DNA of 64,000 nucleotides from a virus (lineage: Duplodnaviria; Heunggongvirae; Uroviricota; Caudoviricetes): the IMG/VR virus record IMGVR_UViG_2671181136_000006, one strand, 5' to 3'. The notes under the pieces were generated by a model. It saw only the letters and a list, made by a program, of their open reading frames with translations, did no database searches and was not told the origin of the DNA. Shown piece after piece: positions 20,600 through 50,120 of this stretch. Numbering within the stretch: the stretch's first letter is position 1; each line of letters begins with the position of its first letter. The translations under genes and the position numbers were made by a program.

Positions 20600-20672
20600 G
20601 TATCACCAAATAAAGAGGGCCACTAAATATAGTGGCCCATGTTAATAGATAAGTACTTACCTATCAATGAAA

Positions 20673-39900: not shown

Positions 39901-40504
39901 TCAATGCGCTGGCGACTTTCATCGCCCGGACGTTAATCTGGTCGTAGAATGGGGTAGGGTGCGGATAAACCACACTATAGAAGTTGTCTTTTCCACCCGC
40001 TGTAATCAGTGTGCTTATGATTTTTGCAAAATCGTTGCGTTGGAACACGCTACCGATGTCGGAAGTAAGCAGGATGATGTTGCCTTTGGCATATGTAGAA
40101 ACCAACTGTTCGAGCGAGAGACGCGGTACAAAGTAGAACTGTTCTCGTGTGTTGGCCGCCGTCATTAGTTCGCAGATGTCGCGATATCCTTTCTCATTTT
40201 TAATTAGAGCGGTAAACGAGTAGTTACGTCCTCGCTCTAATGATTCCATACATCTCATAGATTCTTTAGCAAGTTTAGCCCGGTGCTCGTATGTGGGATC
40301 ATCAACAATGTTTAGTTTCACACCACAAATAACCGCCATGTCGTCACCAGCGGCACGTTGTAGTGGAATAACGCTCGCAATATTCATGCTATCTGCTGAA
40401 ATTACAGCGGTGTAGCCAGCTTCTCTGGCAATCTTCACCGCGTTTTCTGCTTTTAGAGCCGACTCCCCAAGTGAGAAGTCAGTTCGAACCATCAGTGCCT
40501 TCAT
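36986..40504 (-). CDS. dnaE: DNA polymerase III alpha subunit (DnaE family, PHP domain N-terminal)
   Basis: 1172 aa; N-terminal PHP domain pattern, central polymerase core and GxGRGSSAGSLV-type motifs typical of bacterial replicative pol C family. Confidence 0.9.
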   Translation of the reverse strand: MKALMVRTDFSLGESALKAENAVKIAREAGYTAVISADSMNIASVIPLQRAAGDDMAVICGVKLNIVDDPTYEHRAKLAKESMRCMESLERGRNYSFTALIKNEKGYRDICELMTAANTREQFYFVPRLSLEQLVSTYAKGNIILLTSDIGSVFQRNDFAKIISTLITAGGKDNFYSVVYPHPTPFYDQINVRAMKVASALKIEPVAFYPAYYESIDDADIKDIAHMVTNNIKIDQPHRLRIPHQRDNAVNGRRHLLEALKAFSVRMDVPVTAAMASTTQDTIIDACTWRWHELPPALPKMADDEPATLMKLAVAGLRKRLTTKEFGYTPPASENRVYVERLKYEMDTLTRLGFCGYFLMVRDLMNHSRETGIPVGPGRGSSAGSLVAWCIGITNVDPIRHGLLFERFINPERLDLPDADLDFSQARRHEVIEYLNERYGEDYVAGIPNFTYLGAASALRDTARIYGVESADMAVSKELKNVEDDSLPLEELREQLASLDKYATKYPDAFNAACKLQSLMRGFGRHAAGMIVAGVPLTERTPVERRGDARCIAFDKRYCEAMGLIKLDVLGLATLDLLDSAKRYIKENTGEDINLDAISLEDRKVLDGFAAGYTQGVFQLESGPMRKLLKDLGGGIEPMSFKTVVATTALFRPGPIQSGMLDDYVSVAKGFMTPESLHPVLDELTAETNGVILYQEQTMNATRLLAGFTMAEADGVRKAIGKKDMEKMKSMGEKFIVQAQAGWIDVELEDGTTQRIHRAEHFKCEDGTLKTVEEALEYGAKLPINAVRVTASHPGLSEMKAKEIWTAFEKNGAYQFNKSHSVAYSLISYQSMWLKTHYPAEFFAAALTILGEDKHQGLVKDALTYGIRVLPPDVNVSSNRIEIRTLEDGSQVLYAPFSAVKGCSENGCQAIMRAREKVGGKFESLAQFEEAVEKRACNSRVRESLQKVGAFASIEPGSLPATDPERLRDQAELMGNLVIDAVKASRPFEMNPKRSAEINVLMTRMAAEMGLGDELIRPSIGIKPKIMIILDNANGNDARTGYFMENGYDDFKAKLLTAGDLRMGDLYVTGVCKKVKDKEKDYTKDEIGQFTDFMREEINLVRPTYVLTCGSRATSLFNNKNKPSDLVGRKEYLPDLDVTVFYGFNPNILYFRPEEGERLEAILADVAETIKS

Positions 40505-44124: not shown

Positions 44125-44222
44125 GGCTAATCCTTTGTTATGAAAACAAATTATTTACTAGTGTGTTTAATGTAGCACTGCGCGAACAGGGAACTAAGCC
44201 ATTCGCGCAGGGAGAAGAGGGG

Positions 44223-44435
44223 TTAACAGATTCTGACGGCTAAAGACCCGGAGCCGGTATTGAGAAGCGTGAAGCGTTTGTTGTTAAATTCGAATATAAA
44301 GCCAGTTGTGTCATTCACACCAACCTGAATCTGCTCATTCGGTAGATCGGTGAGGATGTCAGCTACACACTCATCAGCTAATTTCTGTACGTGTCCGATC
44401 TCAAGAGCGATTAGGCTGGAAATAGTGGTGTTCAT
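44223..44435 (-). CDS. hypothetical protein
   Basis: 70-aa ORF. Confidence 0.3.
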   Translation of the reverse strand: MNTTISSLIALEIGHVQKLADECVADILTDLPNEQIQVGVNDTTGFIFEFNNKRFTLLNTGSGSLAVRIC

Positions 44436-44612
44436 TCAATCAATCCATTCTAACTTATACTATGGTAAGGAATACTACTAAAATTTATATCAATACTGAA
44501 TACATTCATATCATATACAAGTTAATTTTCTTACCTGTTTTGGGCTAATTTTTCTCCGTGCAATGGCCTTTAACCGGTCTTTTAAGTGCCTATCGAAAAA
44601 AATGATAATAGC

Positions 44613-44657
44613 TTTACAACCCTAACCTTTGATGTAATATCGGTAAGCACTTACCAG
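44613..44657 (+). promoter_or_regulatory. sigma70-like promoter (TTTACA-16-TAATAT) with palindromic operator CGGTAAGCACTTACCAG just downstream
   Basis: -35 at 44613-44618, -10 at 44635-44640, palindrome 44641-44657 belongs to the dispersed GGTAAG..CTTACC family. Confidence 0.55.
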
Positions 44658-44686
44658 TGAGAATTGAACGCGCAAAGGTTGTAACA

Positions 44687-45073
44687 ATGTCTGACAACAA
44701 GATTGAATTTATAGAAAGTCGCTATGCTGCTTTTATCGCAGGGCTGATTGAATCCTCACCTATGAGTCAGGCCCAAATAGCCAGACTTATTGGTTATAAA
44801 AATGCCAACAACCTTTCTTTAATTAAAAGTGGCAAAATTCCTTTGCCTATCGATAAGGTTCGTCCGTTGGCGCTGGCGCTGGGTATTGAGCCAAGTCGTC
44901 TTATGATGATGGTGCTGGAAGAACGCCAACCTGAACTCGCAGCATTTTTATACAAAGAAGGCACCGCTCCTCTTAACGAGGACGAAAAACAGGTTCTTGC
45001 TGCATATAACGAGCGATTCGGTAAAGAGAAAGGCGCATCACAAAAGGTTGTTGAGGCTATAAAGTCTCTATGA
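44687..45073 (+). CDS. HTH DNA-binding protein (XRE-like), candidate repressor
   Basis: SQAQIARLIGYKNANNLSLIKSG helix-turn-helix pattern; start set to MSDNK (ORF track starts 44657). Confidence 0.5.
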   Translation: MSDNKIEFIESRYAAFIAGLIESSPMSQAQIARLIGYKNANNLSLIKSGKIPLPIDKVRPLALALGIEPSRLMMMVLEERQPELAAFLYKEGTAPLNEDEKQVLAAYNERFGKEKGASQKVVEAIKSL

Positions 45074-46171
45074 AAAATTTACACGAATAAGCTCTGTTGA
45101 TAGACGATCTCCCTTGAATTTGTGGTCAATTTCGTCTAAATCCGGTTGCTCTACGATTGATGCGATGTACGTCGAGAAACTTTCTAAGGCGTCTCGCATC
45201 TCGTCCATATAATCGTGCCGGTCGTAGACTCGATCTATCCCCTCAAGACTGTGGTTCATGATTTTGCGTGATACCTCCTGGCTTATGCCTAATGCTGGGA
45301 AGTAACTACGCGCAGTACGGCGCAAGTCTCGGGGTGTAAATGGCTCAAGCTCCATCAGTTCTGGTCGTTCCAGAATACGACGTAATGCCTGGGCTATTGC
45401 CACTTTAGACATAGGAAGGTCTTTCCCGATTTTTTTATTCGAAGGCACGAGCCACTGGCTGCCTTTACCGTATTCGAACAACTCTTCAATACATGTGCGC
45501 ATTAATGTGCTTAAAGGCAGCGAATGCTCACGGGCAGATTTGTTCCTCTTGCCTTGATTCCAAACCCCACGCTTAAGATTGAACTCACTTTTTTTAGCCC
45601 GCAGTACTTCGTCAGGTCGTCTTGCGGATACAAGACACAGCCTGGCCGCCCATTTTGTACCAGCGCACACATTGAAGTAGTCCCATATATTCCAGAACAC
45701 CCATACCTCTGCGTCGGTCAGCTTCCGCTCGCGAGGTGTGGGCTTTGCGCCACCGGCAACTTTGTTTAGTGACATATCGTTTAACGGTGACACGTCTATC
45801 ATCCCCTGGAAGGCGCACCAGCTAAGGAACTGCTTCATCAGAGAGAAAACGCGGCGGCCCATAACAATTTTGCCATCCAGTATTAGTGGGTTGACCAGTT
45901 GGTTCACCATGAACCTATTAATGTCACTTACTTTTACATCGGCAATGTGCGGCAAAACATGTATCAAAATACAATGAACAGCGATCTCTGGCCGACGTCT
46001 GGTTATCAGCAGAGATAAGCGAGTGAATAACATGAATGCGTCCGAGAATCTCATGTCATTGCTGACCTGGGAGATCATAACGGCCTGCATTTGAGATGCT
46101 CTTTCGAGATACTCAATCGCCTCTTTTGAGGTGTTCTCCGCAGCGCGTGCTCTGTCAAAGCTATTTTTCAT
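45068..46171 (-). CDS. tyrosine site-specific recombinase (integrase/resolvase family)
   Basis: C-terminal catalytic pattern R...H..R...Y (RDLRRTARS; HSLEGIDRVYDRHDY). Confidence 0.8.
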   Translation of the reverse strand: MKNSFDRARAAENTSKEAIEYLERASQMQAVMISQVSNDMRFSDAFMLFTRLSLLITRRRPEIAVHCILIHVLPHIADVKVSDINRFMVNQLVNPLILDGKIVMGRRVFSLMKQFLSWCAFQGMIDVSPLNDMSLNKVAGGAKPTPRERKLTDAEVWVFWNIWDYFNVCAGTKWAARLCLVSARRPDEVLRAKKSEFNLKRGVWNQGKRNKSAREHSLPLSTLMRTCIEELFEYGKGSQWLVPSNKKIGKDLPMSKVAIAQALRRILERPELMELEPFTPRDLRRTARSYFPALGISQEVSRKIMNHSLEGIDRVYDRHDYMDEMRDALESFSTYIASIVEQPDLDEIDHKFKGDRLSTELIRVNFS

Positions 46172-46269
46172 ATGACAATCACCGAGTTACGCCGATTCAC
46201 TGTATAAGTAAACAGTATATTAGGCATAGATTCTTATAGGATCAAGAGTAAAAGTAACTCATTTTCACT

Positions 46270-46302
46270 AATGATTCCATACATAGTAGGTATGGAATCA
46301 TT
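46270..46302. other. candidate recombination site: perfect 13-bp inverted repeats AATGATTCCATAC / GTATGGAATCATT around 7-bp spacer ATAGTAG
   Basis: read directly; about 100 bp upstream of recombinase start; arm repeated at 48885 and 49895. Confidence 0.5.
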
Positions 46303-46438
46303 GAGGATGCGTTTTTTGAAATCTACCCTTCGTTCTAGGAGGTAATATTGAAAATCAAAATAATACATAACAATGCATATAAACGTTTGGTAGGGTACAA
46401 TAAGACAACTTATACTAATAAAGAGGGATTCGAGACAG

Positions 46439-46993
46439 ATGCACTTGCATAAGTTGGTTACACCTGGTTTGGCTTCATTGCCGGGTGATCTGTCATATTT
46501 AGATATAGACTTTGTTTTCTCTGGCAATGAAGCTCGTAAGGCTAGATACCGTTTAGTCTTTTGCCCTCCTTCTTTAGATCCTGTTGCCGCAGAAACTATG
46601 CATAATATGTTAGGTGCTGATGTTTATGGGTTGTGTGTATCTGTCGTTAGTTTTGTGGACATGATTCAACTTGACAGGCAGCAAGAACAGCTCCAGAATG
46701 TCGCTCTTGGAGCGGAAGAGCCAATTAACGTATTTGCCAAACCCGAAGGGTCTTTTAATCTTACTTTAGGTGAACTTCAATACCTTTACGGTACTTTAGT
46801 TGACTTAATGCTCAAAGTTGCCGACAATGAAGGCATACAGATTTTATTCTTTGCGGCAGAACGCGAAGAACTGATGGCCACATACAAGAGATATGTGAAG
46901 AGATTTACACAAGAGCGTGGCCTAACTTATTTAAATGACGGAGCTTCCTATGCGATACGAACACAACACTACCCAAAACAAAGGGAAGATTGA
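46439..46993 (+). CDS. hypothetical protein
   Basis: 184-aa ORF after AT-rich region. Confidence 0.4.
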   Translation: MHLHKLVTPGLASLPGDLSYLDIDFVFSGNEARKARYRLVFCPPSLDPVAAETMHNMLGADVYGLCVSVVSFVDMIQLDRQQEQLQNVALGAEEPINVFAKPEGSFNLTLGELQYLYGTLVDLMLKVADNEGIQILFFAAEREELMATYKRYVKRFTQERGLTYLNDGASYAIRTQHYPKQRED

Positions 46994-47113
46994 TTTTAAA
47001 ACTATCCATGCTAGCAAAGTCGAAATGATCAAACGATTCATGACTGCTAAAGCTGAAGCTGAACGCAAGGGTGAAGTGGTCTTTAAGCCACTGTAGTGGT
47101 TAGCTAGAAGTTA

Positions 47114-47140
47114 TGAAAAAGGCCCATATGGGCCTTTTTT
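47114..47140. terminator. bidirectional rho-independent terminator
   Basis: AAAAAGGCCCATATGGGCCTTTTTT between convergent genes. Confidence 0.7.
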
Positions 47141-47177
47141 GTTATATGTACTATATGTACAAAGATGTGGCTTTTAC

Positions 47178-47423
47178 TTATAAGAAACTTACGAAAGATG
47201 CCATCTCTGTGTATCCGCCAATCGGCTGGCCATCGATCAGCACCTGGGGGATAGTCTCTACCGGTTTACCAACAATTTCACTAAGTTTTTCCTTGTCGAT
47301 ACCGGCAGTGGTGATGTCGATGTACTCATAATCACCGTAGCCATGTCCCTTTAGTTGCTTCGCCAGCTCGACTGCACGTTTGCAGTATGAGCAGTTATCT
47401 CGTCCGTAGATAGTGATCGTCAT
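47178..47423 (-). CDS. glutaredoxin
   Basis: 81 aa; CSYC active site, KPVETIPQVLIDGQPIGGYTE matches Grx fold motifs. Confidence 0.85.
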   Translation of the reverse strand: MTITIYGRDNCSYCKRAVELAKQLKGHGYGDYEYIDITTAGIDKEKLSEIVGKPVETIPQVLIDGQPIGGYTEMASFVSFL

Positions 47424-47770
47424 TGCTTTGCCTCATGCCACTTTTGCTTCAGGAGATAGCCTTCCAGGGGCCAGATTTGATCGATAGCATCTTTTCGAGC
47501 GTACTCGCGACCAACATCAAAGTTGAAGATTTCTGGTCTTACGCACGCAGATTTTCCCGTTACGGTATATCCATTTTTGAGAACCATAACGCAGAACGTT
47601 AAGAGTTTTAACGACTCATGACCTTTGTCGATATCTGTTTTTGAATTGTAAACAGAGATGAAGTTATCCCCGTGGCTGGCATCATATGCAGTGAAATAAT
47701 GTTCACTTTGAATGAGTTGTTCAATGTGTTCAGGGGTGACTTTTAGTGGTGTGTTCTCTTTGCTGGTCAT
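47420..47770 (-). CDS. hypothetical protein
   Basis: 116-aa ORF. Confidence 0.4.
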   Translation of the reverse strand: MTSKENTPLKVTPEHIEQLIQSEHYFTAYDASHGDNFISVYNSKTDIDKGHESLKLLTFCVMVLKNGYTVTGKSACVRPEIFNFDVGREYARKDAIDQIWPLEGYLLKQKWHEAKQ

Positions 47771-47811
47771 TATTTCTTCCTACAAAGTTCGTAGACTTGA
47801 CTCTTTCAGTT

Positions 47812-47992: not shown

Positions 47993-48079
47993 TGGCGGAG
48001 AGTAATGGAATCGAACCATCATCGCTTGCGCAATGGGACGGTTTTCAAGACCGCTTGAGCACCATGCTCCCTACTCTCC
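47993..48079 (-). tRNA. tRNA-Ser (anticodon TGA), class II with long variable arm
   Basis: manual fold: 7-bp acceptor GGAGAGT/ACTCTCC, anticodon loop CTTGAAA, T-loop TTCGATT, encoded CCA. Confidence 0.75.
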
Positions 48080-48443
48080 GGCCGTTGTGGTGGCCGGTAC
48101 TGAATCTCCGGCATACGGTGCAGCCAATTAGGACTACGGACGATCACCGCTCGCGAAAGGGAAGATTTGCGGCCGCATTTCCCTAACATCCAAGAAAGCT
48201 ATCGCATCAGTCTGCGAATCCACCACAACGGTAAGATCACTACCTTTCGACCAGTCATTGTGCACATGAACGACGATTAACCGTAATGATCTTATCGTTG
48301 TGTTGTGAAGCCAGATGCTTATCTTCTGGTTGCCTCAAAGAGCTGCACTTCCTCACAACGGTAAGAGCACTGGTCTGACTCTATCGATTTACGGGCTTGT
48401 GGGTCAGTATCGCCGATTCGCCCAATGCACTTACCTGTTGTGT

Positions 48444-48519
48444 TGGTGCCGGTTAACGGACTCGAACCGCTGACATCCTGCTTACAAGGCAGACGCTCTA
48501 CCAACTGAGCTAAACCGGC
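48444..48519 (-). tRNA. tRNA-Thr (anticodon TGT)
   Basis: acceptor GCCGGTT/AACCGGC, D-loop AGCTCAGTTGGTAGAGC, anticodon loop CTTGTAA, T-loop GGTTCGAGTCC, CCA. Confidence 0.85.
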
Positions 48520-48523
48520 AATT

Positions 48524-48610
48524 TGGTGGGGAGTGATGGAGTCGAACCACCCGAGTCGCCATGACAGTAGATTTACAGTCTACCCCGCTGCCCCTACGGA
48601 CTAACTCCCC
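48524..48610 (-). tRNA. tRNA-Tyr (anticodon GTA), long variable arm
   Basis: acceptor GGGGAGT/ACTCCCC, anticodon stem GTAGA/TCTAC loop CTGTAAA, T-loop GGTTCGACTCC, CCA. Confidence 0.8.
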
Positions 48611-48615
48611 TAAAT

Positions 48616-48690
48616 TGGCGATGGTGGGTGGATTCGAACCACCGACCAGTTGGTTAACAGCCAACTGCTCTACCGCTGAGCTACACCATC
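48616..48690 (-). tRNA. tRNA-Asn (anticodon GTT)
   Basis: acceptor GATGGTG/CACCATC, anticodon stem GTTGG/CCAAC loop CTGTTAA, T-loop GGTTCGAATCC, CCA. Confidence 0.85.
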
Positions 48691-49468
48691 AATTCAGCAC
48701 TGCCAGTATTTATTACTCAACAGTGCCAATCGCGACGGTTTAGTTTCTGCCAGGAAACGCACCGCTACTTGCACTTTTCGTTAGTGCCAGACGCTTTCGA
48801 CTTCGCTCAATAGTAGAAGGCAAAATCTTTAAGTAGATGATGTTTCTGAGGACAGCACCTACTTTGTAATTTATACAATGTGATGTATGGAATCATTTGT
48901 TGTGAAAACAGGCACCAATGGCAACAGTGGTTAAACCTACACAACAATCCTGTCTTCACAACGTTGAGGCCACTACTCCGATTGAATGTTTGCCCAACAT
49001 GTTACATATCAACGCTCGCCGGTATCTCTGTGAATAGAACCTTAGAATTGATAAAAATGTAATGGCCTCAACGTTATGTGCTGGCTAACCATACCAGCCG
49101 GGCTACGTCGCCGCTTTTTAACCCAGTATAAACGACATAATTGAACAAAATGACGTAACAGGATGGGCGGTCAGTGGCTAAGAATCCGGGAGTCATATGG
49201 AGTTGAAAATATACCAACCGCCCATTCTGTTACTTCATCGGAGGGAACATGAATGTTCCCTCCTGCGTTCTGCAATCACACTCGCTCAGTGTGTCCCATT
49301 TCGGTAACGAGGCTGGAAACTGACCTCGCTGGTGTTTGGCTTATTAGGCTACTGCCAGATAGACTTCTTCGTTTGCACTTGTATTTAAGTTCAAACAGTC
49401 GCGTCTCAACGAAAACAAAGTCATCTTATACACAAAAGATAAGTAAGTAAATACTTATCAATATGTTT

Positions 49469-49759
49469 TTATTCGGTTGTGACTTTTTTGATCAAGGCCA
49501 CTCTACGACTAGGTGTTCTTGTAATGGTGGCAGTGAATCGTTTCGCTTGGATAGTAATGGTTTCGTTCTCCTTAAGTTGCCCGTAGCGAGTTTCCACCAG
49601 GGTGCCAAGACGCCACAGACCATCATCGATACGTTTATGACTAGCAAATTTAATCAGCAACAGTTTTACGACTAACTGACCTACGTAAAAGGCGAATGCG
49701 ACTCCGGCCGCTAAGAAATAGGTGGCCAACCACCATTCCCAAGAAGTTAAATTGCTCAT
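49469..49759 (-). CDS. membrane protein, hypothetical
   Basis: 96 aa, N-terminal hydrophobic helix. Confidence 0.35.
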   Translation of the reverse strand: MSNLTSWEWWLATYFLAAGVAFAFYVGQLVVKLLLIKFASHKRIDDGLWRLGTLVETRYGQLKENETITIQAKRFTATITRTPSRRVALIKKVTTE

Positions 49760-49904
49760 TTTTTCACCTTTGTTTCATGAACTACCCGATACACACGCTT
49801 TCCGATGCACAGTGTTTTGGTTTTAAGTTCCTGCTTAATTAAATCACGACAGATGCCGAAGCCGATAAGGAAGCCACCCATAAAAGCTAATGAGATGTAT
49901 GGAA

Positions 49905-50120
49905 TCATTTTAACGCTCCTGATTCTACTAATTGCTGTAGCAATACTTTCCCTTTATCAGTTAACTGGTAGTTGGCCGAACACCACGTTTCAGAAACGTT
50001 TGCAACCAACCCTAAACGCTCTAACTTAGCTCGCGTTTTAGGCTTCCAGTACTCAGGGAACTCCGGCCACTTACTGATTTCATGAAGCGTTTCCTTCTCC
50101 CGTTTACTTAATACGATCAT
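49905..50120 (-). CDS. hypothetical protein
   Basis: 71-aa ORF; competing plus-strand ORF 49805-50029. Confidence 0.3.
   Translation of the reverse strand: MIVLSKREKETLHEISKWPEFPEYWKPKTRAKLERLGLVANVSETWCSANYQLTDKGKVLLQQLVESGALK

Follow-up and report, generated by a model that had tools for sequence, protein, structure and literature searches.

A perfect 33-bp palindrome lying just upstream of a tyrosine recombinase gene in an SSU5-type phage-plasmid is probably the core recombination site of that recombinase, and gene and site together would form a Cre/loxP-like module, likely devoted to multimer resolution and not to chromosomal integration. This is the best reading given five lines of evidence, i.e., the linkage of the site to the gene, its invariant arms, the co-variation of these arms among distant relatives, the retention of catalytic residues in the protein, and sites found only on plasmids. 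A preliminary description of this DNA had suggested a Cre/loxP-like resolution or cyclisation system in place of a chromosomal integrase, and strict linkage, co-varying arms, catalytic residues and plasmid-only occurrence all favour that part of it; its view of additional half-sites as recombination sites is not supported (see below).

The window, i.e., the whole 64,000-nucleotide stretch of DNA analysed here, belongs to an SSU5-type phage-plasmid with 98% identity to Cyrano, a phage of E. coli LF82. CMS-2020a and PhiR41_1 are also close relatives, and Salmonella phage SSU5 and Klebsiella phage-plasmids are more distant ones. Following the Cyrano annotation and the list of open reading frames, the minus strand carries DNA ligase, small ORFs, four tRNA genes, a gp49-like gene and glutaredoxin, beyond which come a plus-strand 184-aa ORF, the palindrome, the minus-strand “integrase” and a convergent HTH “putative repressor”, and then a 70-aa ORF, CobT-like and CobS-like genes and the gene for DNA polymerase III alpha (dnaE). 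The features needed first are these:

46270-46302, strandless: putative core recombination site of 13-7-13 design (from the sequence, arm conservation and arm co-variation)
46270-46282, left arm of the palindrome; 46283-46289, spacer ATAGTAG; 46290-46302, right arm
45068-46171, minus strand: tyrosine recombinase of 367 aa, annotated “integrase”, presumed enzyme for the site (from Pfam, conserved residues and a structural model)
44657-45073, convergent with the recombinase gene: gene for an HTH protein, a putative lysogeny repressor
47993-48690: tRNA genes

The palindrome reads AATGATTCCATAC-ATAGTAG-GTATGGAATCATT, i.e., two perfect inverted arms of 13 bp with 7 bp of spacer between them, and 98 bp separate it from the recombinase start codon downstream (46171), which agrees with the 13-7-13 site and the distance of about 100 bp initially described. 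This geometry falls within that of simple core-only sites (inverted arms of 11-14 bp, asymmetric spacer of 6-8 bp). The window contains five exact copies of the 13-mer arm, and 100 dinucleotide-preserving shuffles gave none. To avoid ascertainment bias, 71 loci were picked through the recombinase protein alone, and in 69 of these the gene is preceded by the palindrome at a distance of 96-100 bp, with one exception at 59 bp (a single lineage with 56% recombinase identity); the remaining two comprise a truncated gene and an unrelated integrase (27% identity). A palindrome scan of viral contigs matched 101 contigs, every one of them SSU5-like. Across the 52 unique upstream sequences of the protein-picked set, all 26 arm positions are invariant while spacer and flanks vary, and the arms stay unchanged while the recombinase drops to 56-60% identity and the flanks to ~73%. 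The spacer differs by lineage, and most versions, when read in one orientation, resemble xTxxTAG (ATAGTAG, TTAATAG, TTGGTAG, TCTTTAG). The palindrome was also considered as a terminator and rejected, since none was called there and the T run begins only 9-10 nt past the stem.

A database search further identified recombinase homologues at 44-52% identity in Providencia, Xenorhabdus, Photorhabdus, Erwinia, Pantoea and Rahnella. An upstream palindrome with arms of 10-14 bp and a 7-bp spacer occupies the same place in those at 44-50% identity, and both of its arms are altered in concert to GTCTGGAGTCA, i.e., at two positions, with an intermediate arm in the Photorhabdus homologue. Among these palindromes are the following:

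Providencia phage-plasmid: ATGACTCCAGAC-TACATAG-GTCTGGAGTCAT
Erwinia 106-kb plasmid: GTGACTCCAGAC-CTATTAA-GTCTGGAGTCAC
Pantoea vagans 507-kb record: TGACTCCAGAC-TTATTAG-GTCTGGAGTCA
Rahnella 221-kb contig: a 14-7-14 version

Eight further viral contigs carry an altered-arm palindrome of the same design. The Providencia and Xenorhabdus homologues sit on phage-plasmids; the Erwinia, Pantoea and Rahnella loci have neither phage genes nor an HTH gene beside the recombinase, which indicates that the palindrome goes with the recombinase and not with the phage or its putative repressor.

The predicted features of the protein are those that a catalytically active, core-only recombinase should show. Its Pfam matches are to PF00589 (6.8e-10) and PF22022, i.e., catalytic and central domains, and in an alignment of 14 sequences reaching down to 25% identity R185, K211, R284 and Y316 never change and H307 hardly does. 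In place of the first catalytic His, the whole family has Arg (R281), which counts against our main reading. The N-terminal arm-binding domain (PF13356) is missing from the family and present in P4-like outgroup proteins (P0114-P0120), and the nearest outgroup sequences are P4/lambda-type integrases; judging from these alignments, the recombinase derives from integrases of this type that lost the arm-binding domain. A PDB sequence search with the recombinase returned no match at E up to 0.01. The AlphaFold model (pLDDT 82.5) has its best Foldseek matches in lambda Int (1z1b/1z19, residues 75-356), Tn1549 Int and XerH (all with probability 1.00), with Cre chains ranked 42nd or lower (E ≥ 0.01) and the integrase-fold repressors MrpR/YopR and SroF as weaker matches (TM ~0.3).

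In the mechanism that we infer, each arm of 13 bp would be occupied by one recombinase monomer, and strands would be exchanged across the asymmetric 7-bp spacer. Gene and site would make up a module complete in itself, found on SSU5-type phage-plasmids as well as on unrelated large plasmids, that most likely converts plasmid multimers to monomers and perhaps circularises incoming genomes. The same overall arrangement, a phage living as a plasmid with one tyrosine recombinase gene, is known from Cre/loxP of P1 and Dre/rox of phage D6. Cre/loxP shares with the present system one short site just upstream of the gene, two 13-bp inverted arms, an asymmetric spacer and no need for arm-type sites, and the presumed role is likewise multimer resolution or cyclisation, as reported for P1 (PMC7969092, PMC2409434). 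The two differ in that the loxP spacer is 8 bp long vs. 7 bp here, and the recombinase is not Cre-like (no PDB sequence match, and Cre far below lambda Int in the fold search). Unlike Cre/loxP, the system described here also has a LexA-type box in its promoter and single arms kilobases away from the site.

The region between palindrome and recombinase gene includes two further elements:

46217-46245, minus strand: promoter-like pair for the recombinase, TTGATC (46245-46240), 17 nt, TAATAT (46222-46217)
46199-46216, strandless: LexA-box-like palindrome ACTGT-N8-ACAGT abutting the TAATAT hexamer (pattern match)

We take TTGATC-17-TAATAT as the likely recombinase promoter, with the palindrome ~25 bp upstream of the TTGATC hexamer; the pair matches 8 of 12 consensus positions, and thus lies under the threshold of the promoter scan. 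Both the pair and the LexA-like box are conserved in lineages with >80% recombinase identity, and CTG-N10-CAG is found at the box interval in ~70 of 75 unique upstream sequences. By pattern, the box corresponds to those of the LexA regulon (CTGT-N8-ACAG overlapping or abutting a promoter), and the recombinase, perhaps together with the leftward genes beyond, may be SOS-controlled through LexA binding. A promoter with such a box would give little expression in the lysogen and more once DNA is damaged. Cyrano is inducible by ciprofloxacin (PMC9928086), and 6 h in macrophages bring its int RNA from the LB level of log2 5.6 up to 10.3, i.e., ~26-fold (PMC9928086 supplement). The same LF82 data place recombinase RNA in LB ~five-fold above the prophage median, and RNA of the 70-aa ORF downstream of the recombinase goes up ~90-fold in macrophages (PMC9928086). 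Two aspects of this region speak against the main reading: the position of the palindrome, at about -60 to -93 of the gene's promoter, also fits an autoregulatory operator, and SOS-type control is not obviously needed by a housekeeping resolvase.

Besides the two palindrome arms, the window holds three single arm copies:

40239-40254, minus strand: single arm copy GATGTATGGAATCATT in dnaE (codons 84-89), spacer side towards the palindrome
48882-48897, plus strand: copy C, single arm copy GATGTATGGAATCATT, ~190 bp upstream of the tRNA cluster
49894-49909, plus strand: copy D, single arm copy GATGTATGGAATCATT, also kept in SSU5

The exact 15-mer ATGTATGGAATCATT lies at 48883-48897, at 49895-49909 and, on the minus strand, at 40239-40253. 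Only two of these had been recognised initially, one correctly at 49895-49909 and one misplaced to 48885-48899, and the exact 15-mer in dnaE was missed. The two right-hand copies had also been thought to flank the tRNA cluster, but they sit on the same side of 47993-48690, and the cluster is in fact flanked by the palindrome and copy C. All single copies share one further inner base, which gives a consensus GATGTATGGAATCAT(T) longer than the palindrome arm, and they carry a conserved GAT extension missing from the palindrome arms, so that they may be read differently from the arms, or as RNA.

The single copies are located 2.6, 3.6 and 6 kb from the palindrome, on both sides of it, with two of them within coding sequence. 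The 15-mer at 40239-40253 corresponds to DnaE codons 85-89 (CMESL) in a variable loop of the protein; no lineage with GTATGGAATCA arms departs from it, flanking codons vary, and the loop of Xenorhabdus and Providencia DnaE is without an arm of either type. In one viral contig, a 9-nt in-frame tandem duplication (GAGATGTAT twice) occurs directly beside the dnaE arm copy. Copy D overlaps two gene ends, the start codon of a membrane ORF of 50 aa (49756-49908, minus strand, MIPYI...) and the stop codon of the 71-aa gene upstream. Copy C is followed at 3-6 nt by a minus-strand TAnnAT-type hexamer in the main lineages examined, and Cyrano RNA is ~20-fold higher in the tRNA region than in the ORFs upstream (PMC9928086 supplement). 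From this hexamer spacing and RNA step, copy C probably overlaps the tRNA-operon promoter, of which it would cover about -34 to -19. The hexamers themselves (window 48870-48897, minus strand) read TATAAA, TAAGAT, TAGGAT and TTAGAT.

The tRNA region of the window differs in itself from that of Cyrano: ~360 bp between tRNA-Ser and tRNA-Thr (48080-48443) are absent from Cyrano, as is an extra tRNA-Tyr (48524-48610), and the three tRNAs of Cyrano adjoin each other. This extra segment contains repeated CACAACGGTAAGA-like stretches.

All three single-copy positions are kept in GTATGGAATCA-arm lineages with recombinase identity down to ~60%, and at least one single copy is present within the 13 kb examined of L183 (the 56% lineage); among the GTCTGGAGTCA-arm relatives, none was found within 10 kb. 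Across 171 loci, which are partly non-independent, the spacer side of 257 out of 257 single copies is directed towards the palindrome, and neither inversion isomers nor a change of gene order was seen. A second degenerate arm was sought 6-8 bp from each single copy, and in general there was none. A search of genome contigs with DnaE matched only three loci.

This combination of invariance, constant polarity and fixed gene order, along with the lack of single copies in the GTCTGGAGTCA-arm relatives, indicates that the single copies are functional and clade-specific, and that they are not active inversion or deletion sites. The proposal that they act as accessory or secondary recombination sites is therefore hard to maintain for elements 2.6-6 kb away, with an undetectable second arm and a single orientation in all 257 cases. 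Neither chance nor a generic promoter element accounts for them, as 15-16 nt are invariant while the neighbouring codons vary. The single copies are probably conserved functional elements but not recombination partners, and would most simply represent extra binding sites for recombinase monomers, in a role that may be regulatory or architectural. Integration scars were considered as well and ruled out because the sites lie within continuous, conserved genes. A near-copy of the arm within the recombinase gene (window 45554-45565, minus strand; e.g., L112 4657-4671) comprises codons for VWNQ adjoining the catalytic Lys hairpin; it reads CGTGATGTATGGAATCAAGG in ~86%-identity lineages and a weaker GTTTGGAATCAA, with two mismatches, in the window, and its polarity towards the palindrome is the same as that of the other left-hand copy. 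As a further site this near-copy was rejected, since the VWNQ protein motif largely forces the sequence.

It is tempting, if on balance doubtful, to extend the main reading to a dual role of the recombinase, in which a damage-induced resolvase would also bind 15-16 bp sites in the dnaE loop, at a start codon and at the tRNA promoter, these forming a polar long-range set over ~10 kb. To our knowledge, no such long-range polar set of single sites has been described for tyrosine recombinases. If real, a dual role could couple recombination to the control of lytic-replication genes, or organise DNA around the resolution site, and conserved single sites within coding sequence offer a concrete lead to such an extra recombinase function.

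Two known systems combine inverted-repeat sites and additional copies in ways that can be compared to this arrangement. TnpI/IRS has an inverted-repeat core and extra single motifs for the same tyrosine recombinase, and these accessory motifs, at 16 bp, exceed the 14-bp core motifs in length and do not undergo strand exchange (PMC2847244). An inverted-repeat core with longer single motifs is also what we find here, where recombinase binding to the latter is inferred. In TnpI/IRS, the accessory motifs form a pair of direct repeats adjoining the core, and the entire site fits into 116 bp (PMC2847244), whereas the single copies of the phage-plasmids lie at distances of 2.6, 3.6 and 6 kb on either side of the core and are mutually inverted. 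The Rci/sfx shufflon sites of IncI plasmids have a 7-bp spacer and one conserved arm (PMC4176322), and resemble the present set in spacer length and in having copies in opposite orientations. However, shufflons exist as many inversion isomers, with none seen here in 171 loci, and, unlike Rci/sfx, only 3 nt beside the arm are conserved in the single copies, and inversion would split dnaE.

The same observations have to be weighed against explanations in which the palindrome is not primarily a recombination site. The recombinase-fold protein might instead be mainly a DNA-binding regulator, with the palindrome as its autoregulatory operator, the single copies as operators or roadblocks in lytic-replication genes, and recombination secondary or absent. 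The integrase-fold repressors MrpR/YopR and SroF would be comparable, as proteins of recombinase fold that act as repressors and are not known to carry out recombinase chemistry. The location of the palindrome just upstream of the recombinase promoter is compatible with such a regulator, as are strongly conserved single copies on a probable tRNA-operon promoter, at a start codon and inside dnaE. The repressors of SPbeta-like temperate phages (MrpR/YopR and SroF) are described as having a tyrosine-recombinase fold and several dispersed binding sites (PMC10516654, bioRxiv 10.1101/2025.11.27.690993), and proteins of this kind were found lower down in our fold search. Unlike these repressors, which are the weaker fold matches, the recombinase retains its catalytic residues (Arg, Lys, Arg, His and Tyr), which are conserved even among homologues as distant as 25% identity. 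Moreover, the module stands alone on non-phage plasmids, with nothing phage-like there to regulate, the GTCTGGAGTCA-arm relatives have the palindrome and no single copies within 10 kb, and RNA of the tRNA region goes up, not down, as int RNA goes up. We therefore regard a mainly regulatory protein as unlikely, although it is the least unlikely of the alternatives.

The repeats might also act as RNA, with copies C and D (AAUGAUUCCAUACAUC in minus-strand transcripts) pairing as antisense to the dnaE mRNA copy, and the palindrome forming a hairpin or terminator. Such pairing would draw on the 15-16 nt shared by the single copies, including the GAT missing from the palindrome arms, on the constant complementarity of left-hand and right-hand copies on same-strand transcripts, and on G-U pairs that are still possible in three of the four variants seen. 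Yet the palindrome sits on the upstream side of both flanking promoters and lacks an adjoining T run, it accompanies the recombinase on non-phage plasmids too, and the identity of an RNA pairing sequence to a recombinase arm would be left unexplained. An Rfam search returned tRNAs only and no family matching the arm repeats, and the co-variation of the copy D and dnaE flanks vanished once more lineages were added. These matched flanks (20 nt and 17 nt shared, in the window and in SSU5) had been considered either as antisense pairing or as matched spacers, and both ideas fail in further lineages, e.g., L014. An RNA role for the repeats is, on this evidence, very improbable.

A further alternative assigns the arms, as operator half-sites, to the HTH protein encoded next door (44657-45073) in place of the recombinase. 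A small HTH dimer would not typically recognise half-sites as long as 13-16 bp with a centre-to-centre spacing of 20 bp. The palindrome does lie between divergent genes, and the HTH gene always adjoins the recombinase gene in phage-plasmids and is expressed in lysogens (PMC9928086); set against this, the palindrome is kept where the recombinase has no HTH gene beside it, i.e., on the replicons of Erwinia, Pantoea and Rahnella, and its arms are invariant while the HTH protein falls to 43-65% identity. We consider an HTH operator highly improbable.

The distribution of the module is that of a plasmid gene. Among 5,426 complete E. coli genomes, the gene region was detected in 248 and the palindrome in 252, once per carrier genome and always on a plasmid, with no chromosomal copy among 249 gene-region places or among 504 site strand hits. 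In PLSDB, the recombinase gene is present in 837 records vs. 814 for the dnaE segment, with near-identical counts per genus, and, being as frequent as dnaE in every PLSDB genus, it is a core gene of the plasmid state. These carriers, which include Yersinia pestis pMT1-type and 106.7-kb Salmonella enterica plasmids, are without exception plasmids of roughly 100-115 kb, and no plasmid lineage without the recombinase was found in PLSDB when sought. The last alternative, that the palindrome is the attP of a phage integrase acting on the chromosome, has in its favour the “integrase” annotation and the descent from P4/lambda-type integrases, and is nearly untenable given the absence of gene and site from any chromosome in those 5,426 genomes, the plasmid state of all PLSDB relatives, the lack of an N-terminal arm-binding domain, and fully symmetric arms without a tRNA-derived core. 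The lambda and P4 heterobivalent integrases thus resemble the recombinase in their core-binding and catalytic domains, the closest fold match, and differ from it in arm-binding domain, site symmetry and integration, of which no copies were found in E. coli genomes.

SSU5, a free phage isolate, is without the recombinase, the HTH gene, the 70-aa ORF, the palindrome and the glutaredoxin region; the loss of this recombinase block might explain its behaviour as a free phage. In its genome (L008 42525-42800 vs. window 44200-47800), the CobT-like gene directly follows tRNA-Asn. SSU5 retains single arm copies, and their flanks are identical to those in recombinase-bearing relatives, which suggests that the recombinase was lost recently. 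A recent loss in turn makes SSU5 uninformative as a natural recombinase-less test of the single copies, and this comparison was set aside.

Phage-plasmids of the SSU5 type are common (~4.6% of complete E. coli genomes, ~800 PLSDB plasmids), and their maintenance and lysis-lysogeny circuitry is almost unstudied; in the literature searched, we found no published account of this site or of SSU5-type regulation. A defined recombinase and site pair would explain how these low-copy plasmids remain monomeric, and would mark a hotspot of cargo-gene exchange. The two natural specificities, with GTATGGAATCAT and GTCTGGAGTCA arms, could in addition serve as orthogonal engineering tools beside Cre and Dre.

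Such exchange is suggested by the right edge of the palindrome, which borders a variable segment:

46303-47205, strandless: variable cargo segment, with ORF184, a 53-aa ORF and a terminator-like hairpin in the window

Homology of the window to CMS-2020a or PhiR41_1 ends exactly at 46302, and that to CMS-2020a resumes within the 3' end of glutaredoxin. Many E. coli plasmid matches likewise end at 46302, others up to ~24 nt further, and elements with ≥98% recombinase identity have at least seven different right flanks between them; in the commonest E. coli form, glutaredoxin directly adjoins the palindrome. A breakpoint at the arm edge fits spacer crossovers between co-resident elements, and is counted as supportive only, since a palindrome that merely happened to be the last conserved element before variable cargo would give the same breakpoint. 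The ORF184 segment of the window was found in only 9 out of 248 E. coli plasmids, and ORF184 thus looks like a cargo (moron) gene at a hotspot. ORF184 (46439-46993, plus strand) is a homologue of CYRAN_43, whose expression in lysogens exceeds that of every other Cyrano gene by a wide margin, at ~700-fold above the prophage median (PMC9928086). Pfam gave no match for ORF184, and its sole PHROG match is of unknown function.

In PhiR41_1 (L010 20096-26509), 6.4 kb of foreign DNA replaces the stretch from ligase to ORF184, with one end exactly at the palindrome edge. This foreign segment comprises an IS fragment and an AraC/GadW-like gene, and has its own single arm copy (20621-20633) in the usual polarity. 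The palindrome arms of PhiR41_1 are themselves lengthened to 17 bp.

Spacer orientation relative to the gene varies between lineages, and even between near-identical elements (e.g., PhiR41_1 vs. L053, or one TTAATAG among ~20 CTATTAA). Such near-identical elements (L002 5271-5303 vs. L053, L055 vs. its own lineage) have exactly reverse-complemented spacers. These flips are counted in favour of the main reading, and could result either from recombinase action or from template switching in a hairpin.

Finally, the CobS-like AAA_5 gene of the Xenorhabdus relative (L186 14481-16802) contains a LAGLIDADG_3 domain, which probably represents an intein or a homing endonuclease insertion.
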